A DNA stretch of 34,340 nt, taken from positions 1 through 34,340 of the IMG/VR virus record IMGVR_UViG_3300020045_003826; one strand, written 5' to 3'. Below the pieces are notes generated by a model, which was not told the origin of the DNA, did not search any database, and saw only the letters and a program-made list of their open reading frames with translations. Shown here piece by piece: positions 1,575 through 26,372 of this stretch. Every line of letters starts with the position of its first letter. The first letter of the stretch is position 1. This stretch comes from a virus (taxonomy: Duplodnaviria; Caudoviricetes). The translations under genes and the position numbers were made by a program.

Positions 1575-2510
1575 TTAAACAACAGTTGCAGTTTGTGCTA
1601 TTACGTTTGTAAAGTCATACTTAGCTAATGTTGGAGTAATACGAATTATATCCCCAGCCGTTGCAGTTGCATACGTTAAAGTGTAAGTTCCAGGAGTTCC
1701 TACCGTTTCAACAGCAGTTATAACAGTTACAGCCCCTGGAGTATTATTTGTTCTTAATAGAGCAAAATCAGCAGCTAATAAACCTGTAATAGCTACTGGA
1801 GTAGCAGCACTACCACCTTTAGCGTATAACTTAAACACCATTGAAGCCGTACCCGTAGATGTTTGTGATTTAATTGCATCAATTAAACCATCGTACCCGT
1901 TTAATAAGTTAACACTTACCATATCAGCAGAATCAATTTTAACAATCTCTTCATCTTTTTGATCAGTGTCAAATTCAAACATATATTCGATGTTAGTTCC
2001 GGTTGCATCGGTTGCCCACTTCATGATAGCATCAATTGTGTTAGCGTTTAAAGCAAATGGATATAAAACATCTTCTTCACCGTTTGACAAACCAACTAAA
2101 GCACCGTTTTTATCAACAATGTAAGCTGCCATTTCAGTACAACGTCCAGACTTAAGAATACTTAAGAAATTAGGTTGCATTGATGGATAAACACATTTAA
2201 AAGAACTAACGCCTTCGTGTACAAATTTCTTTGAACCATCGTTAAAAGATTCATAAGTTGAAGCCTCTTTAGAGATTTCAGCGTTAACGTGCTTTGGTAA
2301 TGGGTACCATCTTACTGAACGGTCAACGTTATTAATTAATCCGTTAAAAAAAGCAGCATTCATTGTCTGAGGCAAACTAATTTTATTTAAAACTCCATCG
2401 TTATCGTATTTTGATACCATAATGATTTTACGAGATGCTTTGATTAAAGCACCAGAACAGGATGGAGAGCCTGTGTTATCGTATTTACTTGTACATGAAC
2501 ATGATGACAT
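1575..2510 (-). CDS. Major tail (tube) protein with C-terminal Ig-like extension
   Basis: 311 aa, Cys-rich N-terminus, Thr/Ala/Val-rich beta C-terminus, followed by a terminator; between neck genes and tape measure. Confidence 0.7.
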   Translation of the reverse strand: MSSCSCTSKYDNTGSPSCSGALIKASRKIIMVSKYDNDGVLNKISLPQTMNAAFFNGLINNVDRSVRWYPLPKHVNAEISKEASTYESFNDGSKKFVHEGVSSFKCVYPSMQPNFLSILKSGRCTEMAAYIVDKNGALVGLSNGEEDVLYPFALNANTIDAIMKWATDATGTNIEYMFEFDTDQKDEEIVKIDSADMVSVNLLNGYDGLIDAIKSQTSTGTASMVFKLYAKGGSAATPVAITGLLAADFALLRTNNTPGAVTVITAVETVGTPGTYTLTYATATAGDIIRITPTLAKYDFTNVIAQTATVV

Positions 2511-2528
2511 TTATTTTATTTTTAGAGG

Positions 2529-3473
2529 TTAAATTATTGGGTCTATTATTGTTGTTGTATTATTATCAATCGTATCTACTATTTCTGTTAATTGTTCTAC
2601 TGAGTACGAGCCACCACTTATTACCGTTGTTATTACTAATCCTGTTTCAATATCAATGATGTCTACTCCCTCACATGGAGTTCCGGTAATGTAAATCTCA
2701 TTAGAGTAAAGAACTGCCAACAAACCACCAATCATATCATAAACGTAGCTTGGTGCCGGTCTGTGATCTAAAGTATTTGTATCGCAACATTCACAATCTT
2801 TTAAAAACGGTATTCCAATTTTTAACTGAACACCTGACAAATACATATTGAATATGTTTTTTAGCGTTCCATTATCATTGTAATTACCGAAAACGTTATA
2901 GTTTTTTACATTACCTACTCCAGTTAAATCTGCAACATATTGACTAACTGACAAACATTTTAAGAACTCATTACACGCATTTCGCATTGGTTGGATTCCT
3001 AAAGTGTCGCCTTGTAATTGAGTCCAGTTGGCAAAATCGCAATCAGTTAAAAAATATAATCTAACATCTACATCGTTATCTATTGCATCAATTGGATCTA
3101 AATGTATTTTCTCTTCAACTATTTCATGGAGGAAAACCAACGGTAACTTTGTTTTAAAATTCGGTTCGCTGTCTAACTCCTGGCTAACTTTTTGAATGGT
3201 GCCATGTTTAAAAATCAATGGGTATAAATCAAAAGTTAAAACAGTTGGTAAAGATGCACCGCTAACCGTTATAGATTCGTTACAAACAAAACTAGTGATC
3301 GTATAGGTTACTAATCCAATCGTTACATCATATCCGGCTGTTAACCATTTAGTATAATTACACGCAAAAGTATAAGTTCCGTTACCGTTATTAACCACCG
3401 ATTGACAAATCACTGACTTATCAATTTGGTCAATAATAACCTTTAACTTATTATATGTTTGGCTTTGTAGCAT
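2529..3473 (-). CDS. Putative neck/tail-terminator structural protein
   Basis: Start probably ATG 3473 (TAATG coupling to upstream stop; track gives 3485); immediately upstream of major tail. Confidence 0.5.
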   Translation of the reverse strand: MLQSQTYNKLKVIIDQIDKSVICQSVVNNGNGTYTFACNYTKWLTAGYDVTIGLVTYTITSFVCNESITVSGASLPTVLTFDLYPLIFKHGTIQKVSQELDSEPNFKTKLPLVFLHEIVEEKIHLDPIDAIDNDVDVRLYFLTDCDFANWTQLQGDTLGIQPMRNACNEFLKCLSVSQYVADLTGVGNVKNYNVFGNYNDNGTLKNIFNMYLSGVQLKIGIPFLKDCECCDTNTLDHRPAPSYVYDMIGGLLAVLYSNEIYITGTPCEGVDIIDIETGLVITTVISGGSYSVEQLTEIVDTIDNNTTTIIDPII

Positions 3474-3985
3474 TAGATTGACCAATGATTAATTACTTTC
3501 ATTTTACCATTAAAATCAAAGTAATCAGTAGAATTATTGCAAACATAAATTTGAATGTTTCTATAAGTATTAACCGCCTCATTGTAGTTACTGTAAATAG
3601 GAGTACTATTCCAATCAATAAGATTACTTACCTCATTAGATGCAACCACAAAGCCGGTAGATGTATTTTTAACAGGGTTATTTATGCAATAATCCCAATA
3701 AATAAAACCTAAAAGCATTTCTTTTATTCCGTTACTCCTAATTTCAATAGGTACATCAGTAGCCATTAAATTAAAAATAGTAGAATATTTTGCAGTTACC
3801 GGTGGCAAGAAAGTTGAGGCTGCTATATCAGCATATAACAAATCTGCAATAGTTACACCTAGTAAATCTATTAGATATTTTTTCTCGTACTTGTCAATGA
3901 ACGCTTGTAATTTAGTGACATCAAAACTGCTTTGACTTATCGAATATTTACCAATAAAATCAGTAGGTTTAACTATCTTTGACAT
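3473..3985 (-). CDS. Putative head-tail connector/adaptor
   Basis: 170 aa; FIDKYEKKYLIDLLG helical pattern and position downstream of capsid genes. Confidence 0.55.
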   Translation of the reverse strand: MSKIVKPTDFIGKYSISQSSFDVTKLQAFIDKYEKKYLIDLLGVTIADLLYADIAASTFLPPVTAKYSTIFNLMATDVPIEIRSNGIKEMLLGFIYWDYCINNPVKNTSTGFVVASNEVSNLIDWNSTPIYSNYNEAVNTYRNIQIYVCNNSTDYFDFNGKMKVINHWSI

Positions 3986-3999
3986 TACAATTTATTTAG

Positions 4000-4071
4000 T
4001 AGCGGTGGGCTGAATCGAACAGCCGAAATTTTGATAATGAGTCAAACGAGATACCACTTCTCCACACCGCA
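4000..4071 (-). tRNA. tRNA-Met(CAT), initiator-like scaffold; CCA not encoded
   Basis: Cloverleaf on minus strand: T-GCGGTG TG GAGA AGTGGTA TCTC G TTTGA CT-CAT-TA TCAAA ATTTC GGCTG TTCGATT CAGCC CACCGC-T A; anticodon 4039-4037. Confidence 0.9.
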
Positions 4072-4082
4072 ATATTTAGTAT

Positions 4083-4484
4083 TTACTTAGTAATCTTAAA
4101 AACTCCGGCATTTGTTGCAACCATTGTTCCTGTTCCTGTAGTATATAATTTAAAGTAGTTAAATGGACAATCGGCAACTTTTAAAAACCCTACATTAACC
4201 GCCTGATCTGCTAACATTACAGAATCTAAACCACCTACACGTTTATAATTAACACCATCCAAAGAACCTAACAAAGTAATTTTACCGGCAACCGTTCCTG
4301 ATACCTTAGTGACATTTACCTGAAAAGATATTTGTTTGTAGATATCACTTGCAACAGCCGTTAAGGTTCCTGTTCCTGTGTTTGTAATTGATGCACTTGC
4401 AACTGTTAAAGTTTTAGTGTTTTGTGCTTGTGATACAAAATTAATTGCTAAAAGCGTTACGCATATTAAGATGAATTTTTTCAT
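4083..4484 (-). CDS. Beta-rich protein with Sec signal peptide; possible capsid decoration-like fold
   Basis: MKKFILICVTLLAINFVSQA|Q signal peptide; mature part beta-strand rich (VSGTVAGKITLLGSLDGVNY). Confidence 0.6.
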   Translation of the reverse strand: MKKFILICVTLLAINFVSQAQNTKTLTVASASITNTGTGTLTAVASDIYKQISFQVNVTKVSGTVAGKITLLGSLDGVNYKRVGGLDSVMLADQAVNVGFLKVADCPFNYFKLYTTGTGTMVATNAGVFKITK

Positions 4485-4672
4485 TATTTCTTTTTGGTTT
4501 TAATTATTGGTTTAATTATTTCTTTTACTTCAACTGTTTTATTTAAAGTGTATTCAGCTACTCCTTTTTTGACTAACTCTTGAGCCATATCTTTAGAACA
4601 TATAAAGACTTCGCCACTAGTTTTAATAGCGAAGTCCTTAATGAATGTTATAGATATTAATCCCTTAGTCAT
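4484..4672 (-). CDS. Small basic hypothetical protein after capsid
   Basis: 62 aa, TAATG-coupled to next gene, Lys-rich tail. Confidence 0.65.
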   Translation of the reverse strand: MTKGLISITFIKDFAIKTSGEVFICSKDMAQELVKKGVAEYTLNKTVEVKEIIKPIIKTKKK

Positions 4673-4675
4673 TTA

Positions 4676-5896
4676 CTAAGATGCTAATGTTACTAAAGCA
4701 GCAGTGATGTCAGTTACTTTTGCAAAACCACCTTTATCAGCAGCTCTGATTAAGAACGCTAAACGCTTACGAGCTTTTAAAGTCATTTCATCTTCTGTAA
4801 ACTGAGCATTGATTTGTCCTTTTGATAAAACGATACCGCCTTTTTCGTAGATACGAGCGAAACGTCTGTCACCTACTACCATTGTATTTGCAGTGATAAT
4901 ATTTGATTCAATAACAATTACACTAGCAACTTGAGCACCGTCACGGCTAACAAAAGGAGGTAAAATATAATTATGATTTAAATCTTTTTTCAACTTCATT
5001 TTGTTGATGTCTGCAATGTTCATTACTGCAAAGTCAGGTTGATATTTTGCGCCACCTAAAACAGTAATAGACTCACTTACTTTTACAATTAGATCATAAA
5101 TAGAAGCATCAACAATACCACTAGCAACCGGAGCAAAAGCGTTTACGCTTGCTTTTAAACCTACGATAGTATTTGCTGTACCGTCACCATCAGCTAATTG
5201 ACGATCAATTTCTAAAGCAACATTTGTTTCTAAAAACAAACCTAACTCAGCAGCAAATAAAGTTTCATCTTCAAAAAACTCTTCTGTTACCGGTAAAGTG
5301 TCACCAATTTTTTGTAATACAACTGATCCTTTTTTAAACTTTGCAGTTGACTCAGGAAAAGCAGCGCCTTCTGCAACAGCAGCAGCAGCACGAGCGATTG
5401 TATCTTCATCCCAATCATAATAACGAACAGTTCCGTTATCCTGACCGTTACCTAAGTTTAATTTAGGGAAAATGTCATACAAAGATAATTTACGAGTTGC
5501 TAATTGACCGATATCCGGTAAATCATAAGCTGTTTCATTGTTAGCAATAAAAGAGCGTAAAGTCAAAGCCTTAATAGTGATTTCATCAGATGAAACTTTA
5601 TTAGCAATGTCTTTTAATTTTGCTTTGTTTTCTTTAATCTCAGTAGATAAAGATGGTTTACCGTTTGAAGTACCAACTTCTTTAAGAGCTTTTAACTCCT
5701 CAGCTAAACGAATAACTTCTGCTTTAATTTCAGTGTTATCATTTGCTTTTAAAGAAGTTTCTAATTCAGCAACTAATTTATTAATTGCATCTACTTCTGT
5801 TTTGTTTGCAAAACCTTTAGTAGCGATAAGTCCTTCAACTTCGCTTTTTAGTTTTGCGATTAGTGCATTTTGTGCAGCTATTTCTTGTTCGTTCAT
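4676..5896 (-). CDS. HK97-fold major capsid protein
   Basis: 406 aa; N-terminal coiled-coil delta domain; AAAVAEGAAFPES, QLADGDGT..GL, VVGD motifs. Confidence 0.92.
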   Translation of the reverse strand: MNEQEIAAQNALIAKLKSEVEGLIATKGFANKTEVDAINKLVAELETSLKANDNTEIKAEVIRLAEELKALKEVGTSNGKPSLSTEIKENKAKLKDIANKVSSDEITIKALTLRSFIANNETAYDLPDIGQLATRKLSLYDIFPKLNLGNGQDNGTVRYYDWDEDTIARAAAAVAEGAAFPESTAKFKKGSVVLQKIGDTLPVTEEFFEDETLFAAELGLFLETNVALEIDRQLADGDGTANTIVGLKASVNAFAPVASGIVDASIYDLIVKVSESITVLGGAKYQPDFAVMNIADINKMKLKKDLNHNYILPPFVSRDGAQVASVIVIESNIITANTMVVGDRRFARIYEKGGIVLSKGQINAQFTEDEMTLKARKRLAFLIRAADKGGFAKVTDITAALVTLAS

Positions 5897-6699
5897 TACG
5901 ATAATTTTAAATTGTTAGTTAAATAATAAATTGATTCTGTTTTCTTTTGAGTGTCAGTTGACGGCTCGGATTTATGAGTGGATGTAACCGGCTCAATATT
6001 TTCTTTTACTGATAATGTTGGAGTAGCATAATTTGAACCTTTAACAACGGCTGAACCTTCAATGATTTTAGCCTCAGTAACCGCCCAGAAGTAACCGTTA
6101 TCGATTGCATCTTGCTTATTTGCAACGTCAACGATATACTTATCCCAATTCTCTTTCTCTTCTAAGTAATATTTTTCAGTTGAATTGATACACAAATACA
6201 TTGTAACGTATCTCATACCAATAGAATGTTCTTTTACATAGCCTTTAGCGTATTGCTCAAACATAAACTCGTTACGCTTAGAACTTACATTAGCGTCGAA
6301 TATTAAAGCCTGGGTTTCGCCTTCTAATTTATCAAAACCTAATTCTGAAAACGTCATGCTTTTTACGCTTGCCGTTACTTCATCAGTAATAATTTTACTA
6401 AAAGACATTTGATGCTCTTGTAATAAATATAAATTCTTTTGCTCTTTTAAAGACTTATTCCAAATTCCTTTTATATGAACGTCACCATGACTATCTAAAA
6501 TATTAGTAGTATTGATTACTACTTTTACTTTGATGTTATCCAATTCTAATAAATTAGTATTTGAATCCGCTTTTACAGCTTCGCCTTTATGAGTTGTAGT
6601 TGTTGGAATAAAAACAATAGCATCAGCCTCTTTTACTTTAAATTTCTTTTCAGCAATTAAAGCAGCCTTATTATCTTTTAAGTGTTTGAAAATATCCAT
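5896..6699 (-). CDS. Prohead (maturation) protease, HK97-type
   Basis: LDSHGD, LLQEH, HSIG, IEGSAVVKGSN motifs; upstream of capsid. Confidence 0.82.
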   Translation of the reverse strand: MDIFKHLKDNKAALIAEKKFKVKEADAIVFIPTTTTHKGEAVKADSNTNLLELDNIKVKVVINTTNILDSHGDVHIKGIWNKSLKEQKNLYLLQEHQMSFSKIITDEVTASVKSMTFSELGFDKLEGETQALIFDANVSSKRNEFMFEQYAKGYVKEHSIGMRYVTMYLCINSTEKYYLEEKENWDKYIVDVANKQDAIDNGYFWAVTEAKIIEGSAVVKGSNYATPTLSVKENIEPVTSTHKSEPSTDTQKKTESIYYLTNNLKLS

Positions 6700-6794
6700 T
6701 ACTTATTAACGATTAGATTAGCGTTAATAATAGCTTGCTTCTTAGCCTTTAAAGCCTTGATTTGCTCAGGTGTAAGTGTGTTTTCTTTAACCAT
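6699..6794 (-). CDS. 31-aa basic peptide, first ORF of capsid operon
   Basis: MVKENTLTPEQIKALKAKKQAIINANLIVNK*, TAATG overlap with protease start; below track cutoff. Confidence 0.6.
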   Translation of the reverse strand: MVKENTLTPEQIKALKAKKQAIINANLIVNK

Positions 6795-6832
6795 TAATGA
6801 AAGTGATACGGTTTTATCGTATAAACTTTAGA

Positions 6833-6870
6833 CAAATATAAAACATATTTAGGTAACACGCAAACCGTTA
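6833..6870 (-). promoter_or_regulatory. Capsid/tail operon promoter with shared 24-bp motif
   Basis: TTTG (6864-6861)-N20-TATATTTG (6840-6833); motif TAACGGTTTGC-GTG-TTACCTAAAT at 6870-6847. Confidence 0.75.
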
Positions 6871-6884
6871 TGAAATAAATTTTG

Positions 6885-6892
6885 TATTTTTG
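6885..6892 (+). promoter_or_regulatory. Portal promoter -7 box
   Basis: TATTTTTG 18 nt upstream of the portal ATG; divergent from capsid promoter. Confidence 0.6.
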
Positions 6893-6910
6893 TAACAAAT
6901 ACTTAAAATA

Positions 6911-8137
6911 ATGCTGGATAATTATCAAGACCCAAATTTCTTTGAACGATTAATAGGAGCATTTAGAGGCTCAAAACACGCCAAAAAACAATTTTATAAT
7001 AGTAGAGTACCATACATGATGAACTCAGGTAAGGTTTATATAAATACAGACGTACCGTATACTGTTTATAATTCCATACCTCAAATAGGATTAACGGTTG
7101 ATAAGATAGCTGCTATGTTTAGTAATGGCGTGTTTAAATATCAAAAGATTGGTAGTGATAAGTTTGATGCCATGCCTAAAGAGTTAGCGACATTACTTGA
7201 AAAGCCTAATATATTTCAGGGTCAAAACGCTTTTATGAAACAGTATATTTTACAGTACTTGATTTATGGTAATCAATACATAAGAAAAAACCAAGCAAGT
7301 GCGTTATCTAAAGTTCCAACATCTTTATTAAATATTAGTCCTGCTTATTTAACACCTGTATTAACCGGTAAAACATTTGACCAGGTAGATATGAATGGAG
7401 TAGTTAAGAATTATGAGTATACCGAAAATAGCACAAAGAAAACATTTGAAACTAGCGAGATACTTTGGAGTAAAGTAGCTGACTTAGACAATCCTGTTAT
7501 TGGTTGCAGTCCTTTATTATCGTTACAATTTCCAATATCAAACAGTGAATTAGCTTATAAGTATTTAAACTGTATTAGTGGTGAAAAGGGTGGTATTGGT
7601 ATACTAAGCCAAACTCCTGTAAAGGATGTGTTTGGTGCTTTGCCTAATAGTCCAGAAGCTAAAACAGCATTAGAAAAACAGTATAGGGAGTCAAACGGTA
7701 TTGAAGATGACCAAAAGAAAATACTTATTACAGATGCTCCTATTGGTTGGACTCCTATGAGTTATCCTACCGCTCAATTATTATTATTAGAGCAAATAGA
7801 TGCAAACTTTTTAACTATCCTTGCTAAATACGGTGTTAATTCAAACGTCTTTGTAAATAGTACCTATGAGAATTTAAGACACGGCTTAATGTCAACTCAT
7901 AACGATACGATACAACCTCATGCAGATCAATTTTGTCAACATTTATCAGAGTTTATTGGTATTGATAAGGGTTATAAATTAGTATTGGATTATAGTCATT
8001 TACCGTATTTGCAAGCGGATAAATCAAGTGAAGCTAACGTTTTCAGTACTGTAAGTGCAGCCTTAACGTCATTGTCTACGAGTGGTATTATAACACCGGC
8101 AGAGGGCAAAGTAAGATTGACTAATCAGTTTGGGTAG
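6911..8137 (+). CDS. Portal protein (HK97-like), inverted relative to neighbours
   Basis: 408 aa; LLEKPNIFQ, YLIYGNQY, GCSPLLSL, STYEN, LDYSHLPYLQ motifs. Confidence 0.88.
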   Translation: MLDNYQDPNFFERLIGAFRGSKHAKKQFYNSRVPYMMNSGKVYINTDVPYTVYNSIPQIGLTVDKIAAMFSNGVFKYQKIGSDKFDAMPKELATLLEKPNIFQGQNAFMKQYILQYLIYGNQYIRKNQASALSKVPTSLLNISPAYLTPVLTGKTFDQVDMNGVVKNYEYTENSTKKTFETSEILWSKVADLDNPVIGCSPLLSLQFPISNSELAYKYLNCISGEKGGIGILSQTPVKDVFGALPNSPEAKTALEKQYRESNGIEDDQKKILITDAPIGWTPMSYPTAQLLLLEQIDANFLTILAKYGVNSNVFVNSTYENLRHGLMSTHNDTIQPHADQFCQHLSEFIGIDKGYKLVLDYSHLPYLQADKSSEANVFSTVSAALTSLSTSGIITPAEGKVRLTNQFG

Positions 8138-8345
8138 TAAATGTTTGGTAACGCTCTTTTGGTAAATCTAAAGGAATCGGTTCTGGTATAGACTCACCAA
8201 CGTTATGATTCTCCCAATATGATTTAGATTCTCTATTGTTTCGGAACACTTTTAATTTATTATCACTAAACAATCTATTGCATAAATCAGTGAATGGTTT
8301 ATGTTTCTCTTCAAAAGTATATCGGCATTCGTAGGGGTTATTCAT
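8121..8345 (-). CDS. Hypothetical protein (moron)
   Basis: 74 aa; ATGA-coupled; 3' end overlaps portal 3' end. Confidence 0.6.
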   Translation of the reverse strand: MNNPYECRYTFEEKHKPFTDLCNRLFSDNKLKVFRNNRESKSYWENHNVGESIPEPIPLDLPKERYQTFTTQTD

Positions 8346-8521
8346 ATACTTAATCTAAAGTGTTTTAATAAATTTTTACTAATAATGTGTTTAATAAAAT
8401 CTTCATGTATCGGCTTATTAACTACCCACCAATTTTTTATATCAAAACTATTAAACTCTCCGTGTATTGTGCCTATTTCACATTCAATAGTACTGCTATC
8501 TGTTAAATTTTCTTTTGTCAT
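8342..8521 (-). CDS. Hypothetical protein (moron), 59 aa
   Basis: MTKENLTDSSTIECEIG...KHFRLSI*, ATGA overlaps on both sides; not in track. Confidence 0.6.
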   Translation of the reverse strand: MTKENLTDSSTIECEIGTIHGEFNSFDIKNWWVVNKPIHEDFIKHIISKNLLKHFRLSI

Positions 8522-8646
8522 ATACTTAATATTTTTACAGCAAAGTTAATAAACCAAACCCATAAATAAAACGATCCTATTAAAATACTTGTTGCTACTG
8601 TAATTGAAAGAGTATAACCTAATATTGTTTTAATACGTTTATTCAT
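8518..8646 (-). CDS. Small membrane protein (moron), 42 aa
   Basis: MNKRIKTILGYTLSITVATSILIGSFYLWVWFINFAVKILSI*, ATGA-coupled. Confidence 0.6.
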   Translation of the reverse strand: MNKRIKTILGYTLSITVATSILIGSFYLWVWFINFAVKILSI

Positions 8647-9038
8647 ATCTTCAAAGTGTTAATGTCTATTGGTAGTTCTTTGCCAACTAATGCAAAGTAA
8701 AGGTTTTGTAATTGATGCAAATAATCTAAATTAGGATTAAAGTCATGACTCATAAATTCAAACCTTTCTCTTAAATCAACTCCTAATCTTAATTTAATAA
8801 TAGTAAATACGTTTGTTTCAATCGTAAATTCATTACTATCTTTATCATGCTCAAATCCACATTGCAAAAGTATTGATTCGGTTAGGGGGATTGGTTTCGC
8901 TTGCCACCCATCAGGTAATTTTTCTCCTTTTGGATTAAAAAAATTAATCTCGTCTTGTGTAATTCCGATTACTAATAATGCGTTTTTAGTTAAATTATCA
9001 ATAAATACATTTCCTATTCTTAATTCAGTTGGTTTCAT
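8643..9038 (-). CDS. Hypothetical protein of a type common in Bacteroidota phages
   Basis: ELRIGN...PIPLTESILLQCGF...YLHQLQNLYFAL pattern recalled from such phages. Confidence 0.7.
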   Translation of the reverse strand: MKPTELRIGNVFIDNLTKNALLVIGITQDEINFFNPKGEKLPDGWQAKPIPLTESILLQCGFEHDKDSNEFTIETNVFTIIKLRLGVDLRERFEFMSHDFNPNLDYLHQLQNLYFALVGKELPIDINTLKI

Positions 9039-9039
9039 A

Positions 9040-9137
9040 TAAACTAAAACGCCTCATTCCAATAGGTTACAGCTACCGAAACAAGGCTTTTAAAATGTGG
9101 TTAATATTGTAGGCTGTAACACTACAAGGCAAATATA
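9040..9137 (-). promoter_or_regulatory. Moron promoter and structured leader/attenuator
   Basis: TATATTTG 9137-9130; 15-bp hairpin 9087-9051 with five G.U pairs and a U-rich tail; loop complementary to 5' leader. Confidence 0.65.
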
Positions 9138-9172
9138 GTAATAATAACTTAGTTCTCTAAACGTTATAGAAA

Positions 9173-10354
9173 TTACCTAAAATAGTGCGTATAAACACCG
9201 TATCTTATAGCGTCCATTAAATGGTTAAATTGATCTATTGGTTCATTTGTTGATTTGCCTGTAACTTTATCAACTAACCACATATATTTACGCTTCTCAA
9301 TATCTAAATTCAAACTTGATGCTGTATAGAATACCTTAAATTCGTTTAATTTTGCTATTCCTGCTTTTATACTACCCGGTCCTTTATTTGCAGGAAGAGC
9401 CATAACTTGTAGTCTTCTAAGTTGGCTAACAATATCTTTATCATGCTCACAATATATTGGTAACCCGTCCTTTAATCCATTAGCATTTAGTATTTGCTTT
9501 AAATTAGTAGGAGTTATGCCTGGAGTATAACATAATTCGTGTATAAATATTGATTCTCCTATCCGGACCAACTTAACGCCTGCAGTAGGATCATTTGTAT
9601 AACCAAAATCTAAACCTCCAAAACTTGGTTCATTCCACGGATATTGATCGTCTGGTATTTTCTGCCAATTAGGGAATATTAAACCAATTAAGTTTCCGGT
9701 TAATCCTCGCGCGTAAACATTCCATAAATTTTTATCTTTTATTCCCTCAGTTCTTGCGTGTTCTTTTTCCGATAAGAATGGATTATGCCTATGATCACTA
9801 ATTATTAATTGAACGTTAGCGGACAAATCATTGCTTTCATTATCGGTCCCTATTAATTTTTCATGTGCCCAGAATGGTGCCGATGGATTATAATCAATAA
9901 ACGTTTTTACTCTGGTCCTCTTAGCTATTTGCCAAAATATAAGCCACGAAATACCATTAGCCTCATTAAAAAATGAATATTGTCTTTTACCTTGTTTTGC
10001 GGACTGCTCAGTATCGCAACTAATAAATTCCATAATCCACCCAGATTTAAAATAGATGGTCCGGTCCGTTTCATTCCAATTTTTAATATGAGATTTTAAC
10101 TCATCATTGGAGTTACATATTGATTTAGCTGTACGATAAGCCCCCTTCTTTAAATTGTTAACCGTTTCGCCAACTATTGTTATGATCGGGTCCTCATCAG
10201 GTGCAATTGTAGAAGTTGCAATAGTTAATAATACTTGAATAATTGAATAAGTTTTGCCAGAATCTGTTCCACCCTGGTTTACTACAATATCCGCTTTTGA
10301 ATTATAATTAGCCTCAAATACAATTGAGGTATTAAACATTGGATTACTTAACAT
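9173..10354 (-). CDS. terL: Terminase large subunit (PBSX/Terminase_3 type)
   Basis: Walker A QGGTDSGKT, Walker B FFNEAN, DYNP, nuclease GLDFG and NHLMDAIRY; start likely 10354 or 10339 (track 10396). Confidence 0.93.
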   Translation of the reverse strand: MLSNPMFNTSIVFEANYNSKADIVVNQGGTDSGKTYSIIQVLLTIATSTIAPDEDPIITIVGETVNNLKKGAYRTAKSICNSNDELKSHIKNWNETDRTIYFKSGWIMEFISCDTEQSAKQGKRQYSFFNEANGISWLIFWQIAKRTRVKTFIDYNPSAPFWAHEKLIGTDNESNDLSANVQLIISDHRHNPFLSEKEHARTEGIKDKNLWNVYARGLTGNLIGLIFPNWQKIPDDQYPWNEPSFGGLDFGYTNDPTAGVKLVRIGESIFIHELCYTPGITPTNLKQILNANGLKDGLPIYCEHDKDIVSQLRRLQVMALPANKGPGSIKAGIAKLNEFKVFYTASSLNLDIEKRKYMWLVDKVTGKSTNEPIDQFNHLMDAIRYGVYTHYFR

Positions 10355-10898
10355 CTTTTTCTGATCCTGATAAAGGTGGTCCAGATTGGTAAACATTTAT
10401 TATTGGAGCCTTAATAGCTTCATCTTTCTTTTGCTTATTATCATTCTCAAAGAAGCCTAAGTGTTTCCCTATACTTTCAAGCGCCTTGATTTTATCGTGC
10501 ATTTTAAATTCTATAACCTCAGTTTCCCCGGAGTCATTAGAAAATGTCGTTCGCTTAACTGATCCTATTGCTTGCGCCTTATCGGGATCTACTTTCATTA
10601 AATCTTTTGCTGTTAAATCTCCGTTAAAATAATCTTGAATATTAGAAAACCCTATTTTAGCAAATTCATTTAATACCATTTCTTGAGTTATCCCTACCTT
10701 TTCAGCTAATGGCTTGCGGAGCGTGCACAGCCTTTTTGAGACGTTATCATTTGTTAGCAACCTACTAGCCTCTTCTTTTGCCGATCTCTCGCTATACCCT
10801 GCCCTAATAGCTGCTTTAGCACCATTTAAATCAATAAGGTATTCCTGGCAAAATCTCTCTTGCTTTTCGGTTAATCCTATTTCTTTGTCAAATGCCAT
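10344..10898 (-). CDS. terS: Terminase small subunit (Terminase_2)
   Basis: LTEKQERFCQEYLIDLNGAKAAIRAGYS; DKIKALESIGKHLG. Confidence 0.93.
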   Translation of the reverse strand: MAFDKEIGLTEKQERFCQEYLIDLNGAKAAIRAGYSERSAKEEASRLLTNDNVSKRLCTLRKPLAEKVGITQEMVLNEFAKIGFSNIQDYFNGDLTAKDLMKVDPDKAQAIGSVKRTTFSNDSGETEVIEFKMHDKIKALESIGKHLGFFENDNKQKKDEAIKAPIINVYQSGPPLSGSEKDVK

Positions 10899-10992
10899 AA
10901 TCAGTTACAAAACACTATATAAAACCTATAACGACTTTCTAACCGTTCTATTATCGGCTCAATGTATAGAAGCTCGAATGATTTCATTAATA

Positions 10993-11029
10993 CAAAGTTA
11001 TAACAATTTAGGCAATTAGCAAACCGTTA
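10993..11029 (-). promoter_or_regulatory. Terminase promoter with shared 24-bp motif
   Basis: TTTG (11023-11020)-N19-TAACTTTG (11000-10993); motif TAACGGTTTGC-TAA-TTGCCTAAAT. Confidence 0.75.
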
Positions 11030-11118
11030 GTAAAATATACGTGAAATTTTAGGGTTTATGCGTTTTACGTATCGGTAAGACACCAATGATTACGGGAAAT
11101 TCTGTTTTTTGGAGGGAA

Positions 11119-11370
11119 TTAAATCATATTCTCGATATAGATTTTCAAAAGCCTTTTTAACTCATCATTAATAGCCGGCATAGTGTTTAATCTTAATAAT
11201 GCAAAATCCCTTATACTCTTATCGCTTGTAGTAATCTTTAAGGCTTTGTACTCAATTGGATAATTTGCCTTTAAAAACTCTTCATAATGCACCATTACCT
11301 TCATTAGCTTGGTTTGTTCTACAATAATAGAACTGATAATGTGTATTGAAAAGTTTTCTGAAACCTCCAT
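11119..11370 (-). CDS. Hypothetical protein (immunity region)
   Basis: 83 aa ORF downstream of lipoprotein. Confidence 0.55.
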   Translation of the reverse strand: MEVSENFSIHIISSIIVEQTKLMKVMVHYEEFLKANYPIEYKALKITTSDKSIRDFALLRLNTMPAINDELKRLLKIYIENMI

Positions 11371-11393
11371 GAGTCATTAAGTAACCTAATTTC

Positions 11394-11729
11394 TTATAGA
11401 TTAAAGCTAATCGTACCTATTGTGTTATTGCACTTTAATCCTTTTTGCTGAACAGTTCCTTTATACGTTACCTTTAAGTGGATGCTGTCACTTGCTGACT
11501 GAACGTTATTTTTAAGTGTTATTGTGAACTTTAAATCCTCTTCTGATACATTGTAAGTGTTTGAATAGTTAGTTGATGTAACAACTTGTTGAGCCTGGAA
11601 TACCTTTAATGTACTATTGCTTTTAGTGTTATATACTTCTACCGTTACGGTTTCAACAGGTTTTACTTCATCTTTCTTTTTACAAGCAGTTAAAGAGATT
11701 ATTGCAGCTAATATTATTACTTTTTTCAT
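11394..11729 (-). CDS. Lipoprotein, candidate superinfection exclusion
   Basis: MKKVIILAAIISLTA|C lipobox then KKKDE; same strand as and downstream of repressor. Confidence 0.75.
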   Translation of the reverse strand: MKKVIILAAIISLTACKKKDEVKPVETVTVEVYNTKSNSTLKVFQAQQVVTSTNYSNTYNVSEEDLKFTITLKNNVQSASDSIHLKVTYKGTVQQKGLKCNNTIGTISFNL

Positions 11730-11762
11730 GATTTTAGTTTTTTAAGTTTTTCGTAAATGTAT

Positions 11763-11915
11763 TTAATTTAAACAAATATCTGAAATTAGGTTAATCACTC
11801 TTCTATCTAATTCTATTGATTTCTCTAGGTCTTTTATAATTCTATTTGCGGATTCAAGTGTGCGTATTAGGTTATTGTAATTAGGGCAGGACGAGCAGGA
11901 CAGTATTTGGATCAT
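11763..11915 (-). CDS. 50-aa protein with CxxC and coiled coil, coupled to repressor
   Basis: MIQILSCSSCPNYNNLIRTLESANRIIKDLEKSIELDRRVINLISDICLN*, ATGA overlap; not in track. Confidence 0.55.
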   Translation of the reverse strand: MIQILSCSSCPNYNNLIRTLESANRIIKDLEKSIELDRRVINLISDICLN

Positions 11916-12298
11916 TTATTTAGTTTAGTTATTAGCTCGATTAATTTATTGTTTTGTTCAAATAGTTTGAGATTAAGCCTTTTCAATTCTATTATTTCCT
12001 GAGTTAGTTTGTTGTTTTCAATCTTTAATGTCTCAATATTAGTCAATAAGTAGGCATCCTGTAATGCGTTTGGGTTGCAAACTTCATGCTTCTTATCATT
12101 CTTTTGTTCTTTTTTAATATGTTCGAACACTTGTTTTAGTTGTTCATTTCCATTAATTGCCTTGATTATCTCACTTGAAACGGTTGCATTATCGAATAAG
12201 CCGTATAGCTTAGTTCTACCAATGCCAAGCAGTTTAGCGAAATCAACGCCAGTTAAACCACTTTCTATATAAATTTTATTTAATATATCGCCAGTCAT
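11912..12298 (-). CDS. Putative immunity repressor (XRE HTH + C-terminal coiled coil)
   Basis: GLTGVDFAKLLGIGRTKLY HTH; divergent from early operon; operator-like palindromes adjacent. Confidence 0.75.
   Translation of the reverse strand: MTGDILNKIYIESGLTGVDFAKLLGIGRTKLYGLFDNATVSSEIIKAINGNEQLKQVFEHIKKEQKNDKKHEVCNPNALQDAYLLTNIETLKIENNKLTQEIIELKRLNLKLFEQNNKLIELITKLNK
12120..12129. promoter_or_regulatory. Operator-like palindrome inside repressor gene
   Basis: Perfect TGTTCGAACA, identical to 12364-12373. Confidence 0.55.
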
Positions 12299-16158: not shown

Positions 16159-16695
16159 ATGGCAAAAGAAACAAATATAGATTCTATGAAATATCGTAAA
16201 TCTACTCACCTGGCAGGTGTCGACATTGAAACAATTGTAGCTGATAAAGGCAATTGCATATTAACAATAAAAGAAGCGTTTTATAATACAAACGTTGACG
16301 TATCAGGAAATAAAACAAGCGGTTACTTTTTGGAGTTTAACGAAGATATAAAGCCAATGGTTGTTAATTCTGGTAATAGAAAAACAATTGCTTTAATCGT
16401 AAAAAACCTAACTAATTGTACATCAACTGAAAGTAGAAATATAGGTAATTGGGCAGGTAAAACTATTGAATTAATTTTTGATCCAAACGTTAAAATGATG
16501 GGGCAAATTGTTGGAGGTATAAAAATAGTGCCACCAACCGTTATAGTTATTTCAGATGAAAGCGGATTGCAAAAATTATCTGAATGTAAAACAATAGCCG
16601 ATTTAGTTGCTACATGGGAAACATTATCAATTGGAGAAAAGAAGTTGCCGACTATTTTGGCTAAAAAAGAATCACTAAAAACCACACTTAAATAA
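16159..16695 (+). CDS. Putative ssDNA-binding/annealing protein
   Basis: 178 aa directly upstream of exonuclease; function from context only. Confidence 0.45.
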   Translation: MAKETNIDSMKYRKSTHLAGVDIETIVADKGNCILTIKEAFYNTNVDVSGNKTSGYFLEFNEDIKPMVVNSGNRKTIALIVKNLTNCTSTESRNIGNWAGKTIELIFDPNVKMMGQIVGGIKIVPPTVIVISDESGLQKLSECKTIADLVATWETLSIGEKKLPTILAKKESLKTTLK

Positions 16696-16696
16696 T

Positions 16697-17347
16697 ATGA
16701 AAGCGCATTACGACATAATACAAGGATCTGACGAATGGCATGAAATACGTTACGGTAAAATAGGGGGCACTTTAGCAAGTGGCTTATTTATTAAATCTGA
16801 TAATTTATTACATGAAATTTTAGCAGATAAGACTGAGGAATTTGAATTAGATTTTGATTCTTTTACTTCAAAAGAAATGCAACGAGGTAATGATTTAGAA
16901 CCAATTGCAAGGGAACATTTAACTAAATATACCGGGATTGAATTTAAAGAATGTGGGTGGTTACAATGTTTAGAAAACGAATTGATGGGAATAAGTCCCG
17001 ATGGAATAAATGAAGATGAAACTATACAATGTGAGATAAAGTGTCCAGGTTCTAAAGCTCACATTAAAATGATTTTATCTAATGAAATACCTTTAGAATA
17101 TATTAATCAATGCTTACACGCTTTTACTGTTAATCCTAAATTAGAAAAACTTTGCTTTTGTTCGTTTAGACCGGAAAACATTAAGCCGTTATTCGTTAAG
17201 GAGCTTTATAAGGATAGTATGATTAATATGGGTACAAATGCTAAGCCTGTAATGATGACTGTTAATGATGGGGTTATTTTAGCAAAAGGCGCTGCTTTAC
17301 AATTAAGTAAGCAAGTTGATGAAAAATTAAAACAAATTTCTTTTTAA
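16697..17347 (+). CDS. YqaJ/lambda-type exonuclease
   Basis: QGSDEWHEIRYGKIGGT, MQRGNDLEP, SPDG, EIKCP motifs. Confidence 0.9.
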   Translation: MKAHYDIIQGSDEWHEIRYGKIGGTLASGLFIKSDNLLHEILADKTEEFELDFDSFTSKEMQRGNDLEPIAREHLTKYTGIEFKECGWLQCLENELMGISPDGINEDETIQCEIKCPGSKAHIKMILSNEIPLEYINQCLHAFTVNPKLEKLCFCSFRPENIKPLFVKELYKDSMINMGTNAKPVMMTVNDGVILAKGAALQLSKQVDEKLKQISF

Positions 17348-20430: not shown

Positions 20431-20688
20431 ATGAAAAAACTAACAGAACAAGAGATTGAGAAATTGGCATTGGATAATTTGGAATATTATTCAGATGATG
20501 ATAAAAATAGATGTTCAAAACAGATAAAAGAATCATTTATAGAAGGCTTTCAATCCTGCCAAGAGTTGAATGAGAAAGAGAGTGATGTTTATACAGATGG
20601 CGAACTGTTACAAATATTATTAAGTGAAGATATGAATGATGTTCGTATTACTAAAATTAACCAACTGTTCAAACAATCTAAAAAATAA
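20431..20688 (+). CDS. Hypothetical modular protein
   Basis: 85 aa; shares segments with next ORF. Confidence 0.65.
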   Translation: MKKLTEQEIEKLALDNLEYYSDDDKNRCSKQIKESFIEGFQSCQELNEKESDVYTDGELLQILLSEDMNDVRITKINQLFKQSKK

Positions 20689-20694
20689 GTAAAG

Positions 20695-21027
20695 ATGAAT
20701 CTAATAGAACAAAATATCAAATATATATTAAAAAATAAAATATTTCCTGTATTAGATGAATGCATGGACGCTAATATAGATGAGTCGTGCTTCACTAATG
20801 CTGCGAAAGAAATATTTAAACTTTTCCAATCCTGTCAAAAGTTGCATGATAGTGATAATATCACTGATGCTATTGAATTTCAAGAATGGATTAATGGAAA
20901 AAAATCAATGTATATATTAGAACAAAGTCATCCTTTGAATATATGGGTTTTTTATGGTTCTGGATATGAAAAAAAAGTCACATTGAATGAACTTTACCAA
21001 CTATTCAAACAATCTAAAGAATACTAA
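20695..21027 (+). CDS. Hypothetical modular protein
   Basis: 110 aa; shares FQSCQ and QLFKQSK with previous ORF. Confidence 0.65.
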   Translation: MNLIEQNIKYILKNKIFPVLDECMDANIDESCFTNAAKEIFKLFQSCQKLHDSDNITDAIEFQEWINGKKSMYILEQSHPLNIWVFYGSGYEKKVTLNELYQLFKQSKEY

Positions 21028-22390: not shown

Positions 22391-22462
22391 CCCCCCTTTT
22401 TACAACAAATCTAACCTATTGATTGACATGGGTATAATATCAAAAGACAAAGTAAAAGAGAT

Positions 22463-22645
22463 ATGAAAAACGAAACTCCATTTAAAGGCTCGCAGTTAGA
22501 AACGGAAATAAGAAATACAACTGATTCTGAAAAACTTAAAAAAATGCACCAACTAATAAATGGAGGTTTTGAAAATCAACCCGAATCTATATTTTGGAAA
22601 GAAGCATTTGAAATGATTGATAAAAAAATTAAAACCAATAATTAA
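22463..22645 (+). CDS. Hypothetical protein
   Basis: 60 aa ORF. Confidence 0.55.
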   Translation: MKNETPFKGSQLETEIRNTTDSEKLKKMHQLINGGFENQPESIFWKEAFEMIDKKIKTNN

Positions 22646-22678
22646 ATAATAACCAATATTACACAGATAATTTAAAAT

Positions 22679-22927
22679 ATGGATAAGCAAACACAAATAA
22701 ACCTCATAGCGGGTAGGATAATTGACGAGCACAGAAAGCACAGTTTACGGATGCCTGATGAATGGCACTTAATAGCTGCTAGTAAAATCTATTCACAATG
22801 GAGTGAGTATTATCAAACTAATGAATCTATAACTATTGAAATGTTAAAGCAACAAATTAATAACATGGATAGTGAGATTGCAAGATTAAAGGAATTTGAA
22901 TTTATGTATAACGGATTAAACAAATAA
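22679..22927 (+). CDS. Hypothetical protein
   Basis: 82 aa, C-terminal coiled coil. Confidence 0.6.
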   Translation: MDKQTQINLIAGRIIDEHRKHSLRMPDEWHLIAASKIYSQWSEYYQTNESITIEMLKQQINNMDSEIARLKEFEFMYNGLNK

Positions 22928-22931
22928 CACC

Positions 22932-23219
22932 ATGAAACCAACATTAGAACAAACGCCCGATATGTTAGCCAATCTAACTACTATGGTAGAAAATTTAACA
23001 AAGTCATTAAGTGATACAAAAGAACGAGAGGAAATACTTTGCCGTCAACAAGTAGCTAATATGTTTTTGGATAAAAACGGTAAACCTGTTAGTCCCGATA
23101 CTATAACAAGATGGGTAAATAACGGCTCACTTCCTGCTTATGGTCAGGGTAAAGGAATGTATTTTTTCCGTTCAGAGGTGTTTCAATTTCTTAAGGGTTG
23201 TAAATATAAAGCAGCGTAA
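22932..23219 (+). CDS. xis: Excisionase (MerR/HTH_17-like)
   Basis: LCRQQVANMF...VSPDTITRWVNNGSLPAY...YFFRSEV; convergent with integrase. Confidence 0.75.
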   Translation: MKPTLEQTPDMLANLTTMVENLTKSLSDTKEREEILCRQQVANMFLDKNGKPVSPDTITRWVNNGSLPAYGQGKGMYFFRSEVFQFLKGCKYKAA

Positions 23220-23221
23220 TT

Positions 23222-23416
23222 ATGAAAACGGCAATACAGCTATTACAAGAAAGATTACTAAATGATTTAAAAATATTCCCACAGTACAAAGAATATATTG
23301 ATGGAATATTATATGATATTTATAATGAATTAGAAGCTATTGAGGAAAATCAAATAAAAGAATCTTATGAATTAGGATGTAGAACTGCTGCTGATGATAT
23401 ATTTAGCAGAATATAA
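23222..23416 (+). CDS. Hypothetical protein
   Basis: 64 aa, MKTAIQ...EENQIKESY pattern. Confidence 0.6.
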   Translation: MKTAIQLLQERLLNDLKIFPQYKEYIDGILYDIYNELEAIEENQIKESYELGCRTAADDIFSRI

Positions 23417-23436
23417 ATAACTAAAACAAAATAATT

Positions 23437-23760
23437 ATGAAAACAAAACTATACGGAGCATCGGATGACTTAATCGAAATTGAAGGATTTGCATATGATG
23501 AAATTGATTGCTATGAACATAAAAGACCTATAAAATTTGAGTGTTCAGATGGAACTATTGGAACTATTTTTTATAATGGAGAGTGGAAAATAAATGTAAA
23601 AATATGTGGGAATAAATATTTAAGAGTAATTGATTCGGTTGGTGACGAAAACAGACACGATGAACCAAATGCAACTATTCCATCATATTCAGATATTTTA
23701 ATTTTAGATTCTGGCATTGAGTGGATTAAAATTAAAGGTATGGTAATTAAGGATAATTAA
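23437..23760 (+). CDS. Hypothetical protein
   Basis: 107 aa, YGASDDLIEIEG motif. Confidence 0.65.
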   Translation: MKTKLYGASDDLIEIEGFAYDEIDCYEHKRPIKFECSDGTIGTIFYNGEWKINVKICGNKYLRVIDSVGDENRHDEPNATIPSYSDILILDSGIEWIKIKGMVIKDN

Positions 23761-23814
23761 CTAAAAATACTCAGCTAATTGCAAAGCCTTTTGTGTATCA
23801 CTTTTACCGATATA
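23757..23814 (-). pseudogene. Orphan duplicate of integrase 3' end
   Basis: Encodes YIGKSDTQKALQLAEYF* versus integrase YIGKSDSQKALQLAEYF* (24099-24152); offset 338 bp. Confidence 0.9.
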
Positions 23815-23833
23815 AAACTTAAAAATATTAAAA

Positions 23834-24085
23834 ATGGAAACAAAGAAAAATAAAAAAGATTGCGATAATGGATTTCATGGTGATTGTTGCTGTAACTGCG
23901 CTAAACTATGTGTAATAAATAAACATCCATGGAATATTACCGAAATAGCCAAAGGAAGTATATTAGAATCTTTTGCGTATGGGTGTATGAATACGTTTGG
24001 AGATGAAAAGAAAAACAAAATAAGGTCTATAACATTCTCGGATAAATTACATGGTATGTGTGAATGTCATCAAAGAAATAAATAA
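23834..24085 (+). CDS. Cys/His-rich small protein carried between the two integrase tails
   Basis: 83 aa; CCCNC, KHPW, HGMCECH; probable metal binding. Confidence 0.7.
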   Translation: METKKNKKDCDNGFHGDCCCNCAKLCVINKHPWNITEIAKGSILESFAYGCMNTFGDEKKNKIRSITFSDKLHGMCECHQRNK

Positions 24086-24098
24086 TATTTTATTTTAA

Positions 24099-25304
24099 CT
24101 AAAAATACTCAGCTAACTGTAACGCTTTCTGACTATCTGATTTACCGATATACTCCAAAAACATTTTTTCAGTTGAATGTCCTGTAACCCCGATTAGTAA
24201 AGACGTAGGAATAATACCATAGTTATTTGTGGCAAAAGACCGCCTACCGATATGACTTGTTACCAATTCCCATTTTTCAAAAGTTCCCGATTCTTTGCGT
24301 GTAATTCCATTTTCCGTTTTAGTCTTTGAGCCTTTAACCTTTTCGTTAAGTTCTGCTATTTTACAGACTTCTTTGATGTAAAGGTTATAATTTACGTCTG
24401 AAATTTGTCTAGGAAATTCGCCATCTCTTTTATCCAAAATCCTTAAAACTCTTTTACTTAAAGGTACAGTCATATCTTTTTTTGTCTTTTTTTGAGTAAA
24501 TTCAATTAAAGGTTTATTGTTTTCCTGCCTTCTCATTTTTTTATCAAATCGTAGAAAGTCGGAAACCCTTTGACCTGTTTCGCAGGAAATCAATAACCAA
24601 TCCCGGGCATTATCCAAATATCCATTATCTAAACTTTCATCTTCTATTTTTTGCAGTTCATCAAGTGTTAAATATATCTTATCAATTTTATGGTATTTTG
24701 CCGTAAATAAATCCAATTCAGAATGGGTAGGTATTTGTTTAATTCGAGCGTGTAAGCATATCGTTTTAATCATATTGATATATTTAGCTGAACTATTTGC
24801 AGCATATTTTTGCTCGCTAAAGTAATTTTGACAAAGTAATTTAAAATCCAATCCCACCTCCTTAACTTGAAATTCCCTTTTAACTGACTTTTGGAATCTT
24901 AAAAGTATATCCTTAATGACCTTTATTTTATTTATTGTTGCATAGCTTAATTCCTTGCCTCGTGCTGTTAAATAATACTCAAAGTAATCAACTAACTTGT
25001 TTGGAATTTCAGTCTGTTCTATCGGGTTAATAAATGCCTTTAACCATGTGCTATTTATTATTTCATTTTCCGATTTATTGTAGTAGTTTAGCAGCTTAGA
25101 TTTAAAACTCTCCAAATCAAAATCGAGGTTTCTTAAATCAATGTTCTTTGTATGCTTTGGCTTTCCTTTTGAATCGCTCCAATCATCGGGATTAATAGAT
25201 AGTTTAGTCTTTGCTTTGGCGTCTACTTTGCGACCATCTCTTAAACGTACATAGATTCCAGAGGGGTTTGTTTTGGATTGAATAAAGAAGTTAATCGTAG
25301 GCAT
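24099..25304 (-). CDS. int: Tyrosine integrase (Bacteroidota arm-binding + SAM-like + catalytic)
   Basis: TGQRVSD, KKT, SHIGRRSFAT, TGHS, catalytic Tyr in EYIG; ATG 25304 lies 3 nt after TATATTTG (track TTG 25310 lies inside the promoter box). Confidence 0.95.
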   Translation of the reverse strand: MPTINFFIQSKTNPSGIYVRLRDGRKVDAKAKTKLSINPDDWSDSKGKPKHTKNIDLRNLDFDLESFKSKLLNYYNKSENEIINSTWLKAFINPIEQTEIPNKLVDYFEYYLTARGKELSYATINKIKVIKDILLRFQKSVKREFQVKEVGLDFKLLCQNYFSEQKYAANSSAKYINMIKTICLHARIKQIPTHSELDLFTAKYHKIDKIYLTLDELQKIEDESLDNGYLDNARDWLLISCETGQRVSDFLRFDKKMRRQENNKPLIEFTQKKTKKDMTVPLSKRVLRILDKRDGEFPRQISDVNYNLYIKEVCKIAELNEKVKGSKTKTENGITRKESGTFEKWELVTSHIGRRSFATNNYGIIPTSLLIGVTGHSTEKMFLEYIGKSDSQKALQLAEYF

Positions 25305-25319
25305 GGGCAAATATAATAA

Positions 25320-25547
25320 TTTAGTCCACCATTAGCCCACAATCATACGGTCTAATGTTGTTAATTAACGTTTAAACAAGTAAAGAGAATTGTAAAAGGT
25401 TAGTGTTTAAAAGGTTTAAACGGTTTTGAATTTGTTTAGATTTGTTTAATCTGTCCTTAGCAAAGCCACTTTTTAAAATTAAGTTTGTAATGATAGTAAA
25501 GGTTTACAAAGATTGAGTGTTTATTTTAGTCCACCATTAGACCACAA
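25320..25547. mobile_element. attP with paired arm-type direct repeats
   Basis: TTTAGTCCACCATTAG(C/A)CCACAA at 25320-25342 and 25525-25547 flanking an AT-rich spacer with repeated GTTTA(A); core not pinpointed. Confidence 0.75.
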
Positions 25548-25571
25548 AGGATTAATTAGTATATTTGATTT

Positions 25572-25802
25572 GTGGGTAAATCAATAAAATCGGGCATAAA
25601 AACTAAAAATCACATCACGAAAAAAGTGCAAAATTTTTTATACCGTGACGATGTGGTTAATGTATCTACGATTAAACGAATATTTAAAGCGAACAGTTTA
25701 GAAGAGCAGCCTCAGTTAGATATTATTGACCATGATTATTATTACGGAACAGAAAACTGCAGTTGTCAGTATTGTTTAATGCAATTTTATTATTACGAGT
25801 AA
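25572..25802 (+). CDS. Moron beside attP with CxCxxC, probably leaderless
   Basis: TATATTTG 25560-25567, GTG at the fifth nt after it; convergent with lysis genes. Confidence 0.55.
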   Translation: MGKSIKSGIKTKNHITKKVQNFLYRDDVVNVSTIKRIFKANSLEEQPQLDIIDHDYYYGTENCSCQYCLMQFYYYE

Positions 25803-26372
25803 TTAAGGAATAACCTTACCAACTCCAAACCTCAAACTTTCATCAGTAGCAACTCCTAAAATAAAACCATGTTTTGCACCTTTCCAATATCCAGAACGTT
25901 TTGCTTTTGGTATTGAATCGTTACGAAGTGATACTATTTTAGTACTGTCCGTATATCGGGTATAGTTTTTAAGTGTAATTACATCTTTTTGATTACCAAT
26001 AATACTATCACTTTTATGCTGTGCTTTTGTTTGACTACTGATAATATTATTGTTTATACTATCAGTTTTAAGGCATTCAACATACAATACTTCAACTGCT
26101 TTTTTACAAGTGGAATCTACTACATAAATAAGGCTGTCATGGATTCTAGTTTTACCGGCAATATATTTAGGCTTCAACTTTAACAAACTATCGGTTTTAT
26201 TCTTTTCAATTCCTAATTCATAAGTTAACCGTTCAACTTCTTTTAGTTTTTGGGCTTCTAATGGATTGGTAATTGTTGAGATAGTCGGTTTTTTGTCGCA
26301 TCCGTTAAAGTAGATTATAACACCTACTAAAACTGCTATAATTATTAGGTAAATATATTTTGGATTTTTCAT
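25803..26372 (-). CDS. Spanin-like membrane/lipoprotein
   Basis: Start ATG 26372; N-terminal hydrophobic helix ending FNGC, coiled coil, Gly-rich hydrophobic C-terminus; last lysis gene. Confidence 0.5.
   Translation of the reverse strand: MKNPKYIYLIIIAVLVGVIIYFNGCDKKPTISTITNPLEAQKLKEVERLTYELGIEKNKTDSLLKLKPKYIAGKTRIHDSLIYVVDSTCKKAVEVLYVECLKTDSINNNIISSQTKAQHKSDSIIGNQKDVITLKNYTRYTDSTKIVSLRNDSIPKAKRSGYWKGAKHGFILGVATDESLRFGVGKVIP

Follow-up and report, generated by a model that had tools for sequence, protein, structure and literature searches.

The integrase locus of this phage raises the question of how the last 17 codons of an intact tyrosine integrase gene came to be present twice, 338 bp apart and with one gene between the copies, and whether the integrase itself had a part in this. 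The window, i.e., the whole stretch of DNA that was analysed, has a size of 34,340 bases and represents the whole virus record, which is linear and estimated to be 88% complete. It encodes a terminase, portal and major head proteins, a primase/helicase, and a YqaJ/RecE-like exonuclease (16697..17347, plus strand), which is a candidate part of a phage recombination system and whose adjoining gene (16159-16695) had no annealase match. A tRNA-Met (CAT) gene lies within the head-gene region (3999-4071). The named homologues of the window integrase belong to the Bacteroidota. Searches of viral contigs with the integrase, the 83-amino-acid protein encoded between the tail copies, and the alignment confirmed neither a close relative of the phage nor an empty allele of the int locus, one of the signs of cassette exchange proposed in the preliminary description; tail patterns gave no match, and the excisionase query gave a single match at 33%. 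Integrases of GenBank phages reached at most 35% identity to that of the window, and all atlas matches were below 0.9. Rfam gave no match across 22400-25900, and the region 23400-24400 contained neither a terminator nor an excess of promoters.

The integrase gene int (24099..25304, minus strand) is intact and encodes 401 amino acids when read from its ATG, upstream of which the ORF finder had placed the start (TTG at 25310). Its product matched Phage_int_SAM_5 (28 bits), phrog_1, and Phage_integrase with 26.9 bits, just below the cut-off of 27.1, but no solved structure. The tyrosine following the HxxR...GH motif is the nucleophile of tyrosine recombinases, and this role was assigned to Tyr385 on that basis; Tyr385, R246, K273, H351, R354, and H376 are invariant among 69 homologues, the closest of which is 84% identical. 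With this R-K-H-R-H-Y set, a SAM-like domain, and tandem arm sites upstream, the protein corresponds to an arm-binding tyrosine integrase of Bacteroidota elements. The gene is oriented leftward (25304 to 24099) and points towards a row of small rightward genes, among them a convergent excisionase-like HTH gene (xis; 22932..23219, plus strand; Pfam HTH_17, phrog_66 E 5e-4). Upstream of int, an attP-like region without assigned strand (25317..25547) carries two pairs of arm-type sites (25317-25342 and 25522-25547), which flank both sides of a 230-bp region as expected of an attP; this region is likely the true target of Int. In most family members, the int start is closely preceded by two or three tandem arm-type sites and, at a distance of approximately 180-200 nt, by the boundary of the element. 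This boundary presumably reads as the reverse complement of the 3′ end of a tRNA or tmRNA; ARAGORN called no full tRNA or tmRNA gene on 300-nt boundary pieces, and a 16-nt guess at the attP core matched none of 185 genomes. The integrase family occurs mostly in small chromosomal elements consisting of int, a variable gene, xis, and replication genes (L011, L144, L149, L252, and others); no member was found among the viral contigs of the collection, and the int of this phage may therefore derive from an element of that kind.

Codons 385-401 of int and the stop codon (24099-24152) recur at 23761-23814 on the minus strand. The two copies differ at 10 of 54 nucleotides and at 1 of 17 amino acids (Ser to Thr at position Tyr+6), and they also show a switch between the serine codons TCA and AGT. 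When the four nucleotides following the stop are included, the functional tail (24095..24152, minus strand) and the stranded tail (23757..23814, minus strand) match at 48 of 58 positions, compared with 32 for the next best match, the window average being 16.5 ± 3.4 (blastn E 6e-10). Identity is perfect at both ends: over 12 bp in the YIGK codons (23803..23814, minus strand; partner 24141-24152), ending at the novel joint 23814/23815, and over 22 bp comprising the LAEYF codons, the stop, and the four following nucleotides (23757..23778, minus strand; partner 24095-24116), which is the longest perfect stretch. In-register identity extends to the first base of the Tyr codon and no further; of the 15 preceding bases, 8 match, an ordinary level that 3 of 22 other gene starts of the phage also reach. 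All these details had been given in the preliminary description and held upon realignment. The stranded copy is unlikely to be translated, since ATG, GTG, and TTG are absent from the 20 open codons preceding its Tyr codon. No inverted repeat bracketing the ORF between the copies was found among the 25 longest of the 130 repeats listed. A second direct repeat in the window (20654-20687 and 20990-21023; 34 nt, 88%, spacing 336) consists of the 3′ ends of two neighbouring small genes with similar terminal peptides and is another shared gene end in the same phage.

A fresh tandem duplicate that diverged by neutral decay was rejected as the source of the two tails. In 20,000 simulations of such decay, 10 random substitutions caused 6.4-7.0 amino acid changes and one change or none was obtained with P ≤ 5e-5, while pairs of family members with at most one amino acid difference in the tail are a median of 9 nt apart (n = 258 pairs). 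Judging from the single amino acid change and this family median, the copies look like the tails of two working parent integrase genes, which bears out the earlier proposal that both evolved under protein-level selection. The stranded copy is probably the native (recipient) one, and the functional copy, from Tyr385 to four nucleotides past the stop, would then be the incoming (donor) tail. This assignment draws on the alignment and on codon usage, as the middle codons of the stranded copy fit the codon usage of int better than those of the functional copy (lnL -7.1 vs -11.2, from eight codons only). The 84%-identical homologue carries Thr like the stranded copy; this supports the assignment weakly, because 96 of 120 homologues have Thr at Tyr+6. 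Since the remaining homologues include 22 with Ser, so that both residues are common at this position, the exchange has no evident functional meaning and would leave the function of Int unchanged, contrary to the idea of a meaningful swap of the C-terminus.

The distribution of the differences is unexpected for random family genes, as perfect identity at both ends together with seven differing codons within a stretch of eight has a P of 0.0025; the 12-mer is shared by 5.2% and the 18-mer by 3.2% of the family pairs. The double-ended identity in the window therefore needs luck, closely related parents, or later conversion. It would be explained, as would the atypical codons in the middle of the functional copy, if the tail had been duplicated exactly when the gene was gained and a 24-bp middle segment of the functional copy had then been replaced by a patch from a third integrase. 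This sequence of events is judged improbable: it requires two non-homologous joints plus a later patch, the differences in one of the related loci described below (L071) run along the entire tail, and the 22-mer of the window is present in 1 of 47 family integrases, namely in an unrelated one (L011, 57% amino acid identity), so that identity at the end can arise independently.

The gained gene (23834..24085, plus strand) starts 19 nt after the joint and codes for a Cys/His-rich protein of 83 amino acids. In a word-index protein search this ORF had appeared to be an orphan, a result overturned by a full HMMER search that retrieved 182 relatives at E ≤ 1e-3, one of them in the Flavobacterium phage filifjonk9-1. 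The family shares an invariant CCxC, HPxN, and C as well as near-invariant H/CE positions, and from the invariant Cys and His residues the protein is predicted to bind metal; Pfam, PHROG, PADLOC, NCBIfam, and PDB contained no match. In all 17 viral loci of the family the gene stands in a row of small co-oriented genes, and neither an integrase nor a tail is nearby (17/17, within 3 kb or to the contig end). It is an ordinary, widespread accessory phage gene and not a cassette tied to int. The gene on the other side of the stranded tail (23437..23760, plus strand; 107 amino acids), whose stop abuts this tail, is itself mobile: it is about 90% identical on the nucleotide level in two otherwise unrelated phage contigs, and the similarity stops within the final codons of int, where 7 A-rich nucleotides match. 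In these contigs (L154, 3940-4350; L155, 1850-2280) it is bracketed by common non-coding sequences that the window lacks, a pattern that suggests repeat-bounded single-gene modules in freshwater-type Bacteroidota phages. With an ordinary accessory gene and a mobile neighbour, the gap between xis and int reads as a mosaic end-of-operon slot. Across 271 related loci, the genes that directly follow int form 110 clusters.

Related integrase loci were surveyed for further stranded tails by comparing each int, from 300 nt before the Tyr codon to the stop, with the 6 kb that follow. A total of 332 loci were gathered (the window, 151, and 180), including distant subfamilies; the tail was located in 327 of them, the five others were dropped, and the remainder collapsed to 305 distinct loci, 254 of which had at least 2.5 kb downstream. 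Clear stranded tails were present in 3 of the 304 related loci, i.e., about 1%. In L071, the stranded tail begins 1 nt before the Tyr codon and lies 2,025 bp away, the cargo encodes a T9SS-sorted protein, and the upstream int is truncated. In L149 it begins 28 nt before the Tyr codon (1,065 bp away), and in L252 it begins 16 nt after this codon (1,320 bp away) with mobile mystery proteins A and B as cargo. Different cargo beside stranded tails in relatives had been anticipated in the preliminary description, as had arrays of tails, but none of the 305 loci had more than one extra tail within 6 kb. Two further tails are doubtful (L127, +23 nt, with HigBA cargo, E 3e-4; L267, E 2e-4, stopping short of the stop codon), and a match inside a real gene (L011), L222, L100, and other weak matches were rejected as chance. 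One locus was left out of the breakpoint count as a 100% duplicate of the whole int region (L046); it carries a perfect 1,939-bp duplicate at about 2460-4400 and 8900-10840, 6,441 bp apart, which is either a tandem element or an assembly duplicate. Tail-only matches were limited to that of L071 in 185 genomes; none were found in sets of 68, 401, 27, and 18 genomes, nor among the matches listed for another 401 genomes.

The same anatomy in three independent assemblies also bears on whether the window joins two co-occurring phages by an assembly error, which would be conceivable for a single metagenomic record. Such a mis-join requires shared sequence, yet the joint 23814/23815 lies in unique sequence, and the copies differ at 10 positions; an artefact is regarded as extremely unlikely.

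The tails in two of the relatives are synonymously biased as well (L071, P ≤ 2.5e-4; L252, P ≤ 5e-4), whereas the stranded copy of L149 has seven amino acid changes, which indicates that decay contributed there. In a single-unit relative of the latter (L144), int and its tail are followed by a single gene for 289 amino acids, a spacer, and xis. In L149, a homologue of this gene and a truncated version of the same spacer follow the int tail, after which come the second tail, another gene, the spacer in full length, and xis. The spacer is cut within 5 bp that match the His codon of int, and the stranded copy begins, just past the joint, with L144-type codons, unlike the int of L149 itself. This is a product of homology plus microhomology, without sign of Int action. 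In L071, the region 4470-12230 is a pile of mobile-element remains, including a frameshifted fragment of a family int followed by the cargo and the stranded tail, and presumably, as judged from motifs, also an IstB-like ATPase, a serine recombinase, and a second tyrosine integrase.

With breakpoints at -28, -1, and +16 nt relative to the Tyr codon in the relatives and at 0 in the window, the non-homologous joint varies. This scatter is the outcome that the preliminary description had itself set against its claim of a breakpoint fixed at the Tyr codon. Its conserved 12-bp core fared no better, as the YIGK codons exist in 38 DNA versions among 191 genes and the version of the window is present in five of them. 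That reading was borne out in part, namely in the protein-level selection on both tails, the rejection of a fresh tandem duplication, and the presence of other cargo beside stranded tails. Insertion or excision of tail-plus-cargo cassettes at a YIGK core by Int or another site-specific recombinase, in the manner of e14 in icd, would fit the anatomy of an insertion into the 3′ end of a gene, and two of the four clear cases start at the Tyr codon or 1 nt from it. The four breakpoints do cluster, all lying within 45 nt (P 0.008 against a uniform distribution from -300 to +40, and smaller still against the whole gene; P 0.046 for the three relatives alone), and no long stranded int fragments were seen in the survey. 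Given the cluster, however, one of three relatives falling within 1 nt of the Tyr codon has a P of 0.19, and the other two breakpoints lie 28 nt before and 16 nt after it. In addition, the unit in the window holds only the 83-aa ORF and no recombinase, no arm site within one mismatch was found in or beside the 338-bp unit or four other units, the cargo is unlinked to int in the viral loci of its family, and arrays are absent. The joints showed no enrichment of the family att motif in a model of the att junctions (77 of 89 sites), a weak test because the model also misses the attP of the window. The att region lies upstream of int, and NCBIfam gave no IntI-type match for Int, which matched SAM-like and, weakly, arm-binding domains instead. 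An Int-dependent or integron-like route, as initially proposed, is accordingly considered very improbable.

Codons 381-400 form the 20-codon block of int that is best conserved on the DNA level (0.72, compared with 0.52-0.70 elsewhere; 80 genes, 3157 pairs). This peak explains the clustering only partly, being too mild alone, and a survival filter may add to it, as long repeats would be deleted. A bolder reading is that Bacteroidota integrase genes offer a preferred docking zone in their last 50 nt, around the catalytic Tyr codon, through which phages and small integrative elements trade toxin-antitoxin pairs, secreted proteins, and small phage genes. A dedicated activity would drive this trade, for instance Int at a secondary site or a phage annealase that captures small circles of tail plus gene; the reading is put forward as a speculation that is probably wrong.

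What is observed is an intact int whose tail is present in two synonymously diverged copies, with a common phage gene in between. The stranded tail is probably, though by no means certainly, the scar left when two related Bacteroidota phages recombined once without the integrase, in an event that likely combined homology in int with a microhomology joint. That 3 of 304 related loci carry the same scar with different breakpoints makes ordinary recombination likely, not an integrase-driven cassette system. In the donor, the 83-aa gene would have stood at the end of a rightward operon that converged on the int of that phage. Crossing over between homologous sequences within int, at or upstream of the YIGK codons, would have brought in the donor tail together with this gene, and the far end, 19 nt upstream of the gene start, would have been joined at the Tyr codon of the recipient, likely by a short microhomology. 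The last 17 codons of the recipient would thereby have been left behind with their old neighbour, the 107-aa gene. The scar could persist with a longest perfect stretch of 22 bp (9, 22, and 26 bp in the three relatives), which is under the length for efficient homologous deletion; the minimal efficient processing segment (MEPS) is 31-34 bp in the case of RecA and 23-27 bp in that of Red-beta (PMC3945230).

Apart from the double-ended identity, the clustered breakpoints, and the decay in L149, three points count against this recombination event. Neither parent was found. Homology-facilitated illegitimate recombination is rare in experiments (PMC3240628). Moreover, the perfect run that starts exactly at the joint in the window (12 bp) and in L252 (22 bp) fits a single crossover better. 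Such a crossover would occur if a microhomology deletion in the donor had freed a 338-bp circle of tail and gene, which then entered the int of the recipient through the 12- or 22-bp identity with the help of host or phage recombination proteins and without Int. The end product would be identical, and the exonuclease of the phage speaks for this circle route. It is nevertheless rated as rather unlikely: the run at the joint of L071 is only 3 bp, three of its four YIGK codons differing between the copies; 12-22 bp is under the published lengths for efficient pairing; and two rare steps plus a non-replicating circle are required.

The recombination between two phages preferred here would make the locus a clean and small example of gene gain by a phage next to an essential gene that stays unharmed, and with the survey such scars can be given a frequency (3 of 304 relatives) and a range of breakpoints. 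If the clustering near the Tyr codon were enzymatic, it would point to a route of cargo loading that has gone unrecognised in a very common class of elements. Among known processes, the mosaicism of temperate phages is attributed to relaxed homologous recombination, by which diverged phages exchange DNA at short homologies (PMC3945230). The RecE-like exonuclease and other mosaic joints nearby agree with that account; pure homologous exchange gives a clean replacement, whereas a stranded tail needs one non-homologous joint. In the Myxococcus phage Mx8, attP lies inside int, and the swap resulting from this location is the integration event and lowers integrase activity (PMC4701971); this site was reportedly described by Magrini in 1999. 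Recombination inside a tyrosine integrase gene that alters the C-terminus is common to both cases, but in the window and its relatives the arm sites and the boundary of the element are upstream of int, and the swap is from Ser to Thr. The 15-kb prophage e14 resides in icd of E. coli, is accompanied by the pseudogene icdC, and excises on SOS induction (PMC13626634). There, too, a gene is restored by a synonymously diverged 3′ end and the other copy is a pseudogene across the insert. The 338-bp unit differs in having neither recombinase nor arm sites, and the breakpoints in its family vary.

Displaced 3′ ends were reportedly treated by Jackson et al. in 2009. At T6SS effector-immunity and rhs loci, such displaced (orphan) 3′ ends have been attributed to homology-facilitated illegitimate recombination (PMC5361080), and by analogy this is the closest known system. 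As found here, a conserved anchor gene receives a new 3′ end and a new downstream gene, while the old 3′ end and the old neighbour are pushed back, with no evidence of an integrase. The window differs in having an integrase gene as the anchor and a new tail of equivalent function; moreover, only single units without arrays occur, in about 1% of the loci. No description of stranded tails of integrase genes was found in the open-access literature; the type of scar is thus already known, and the integrase gene as its anchor is a new instance.
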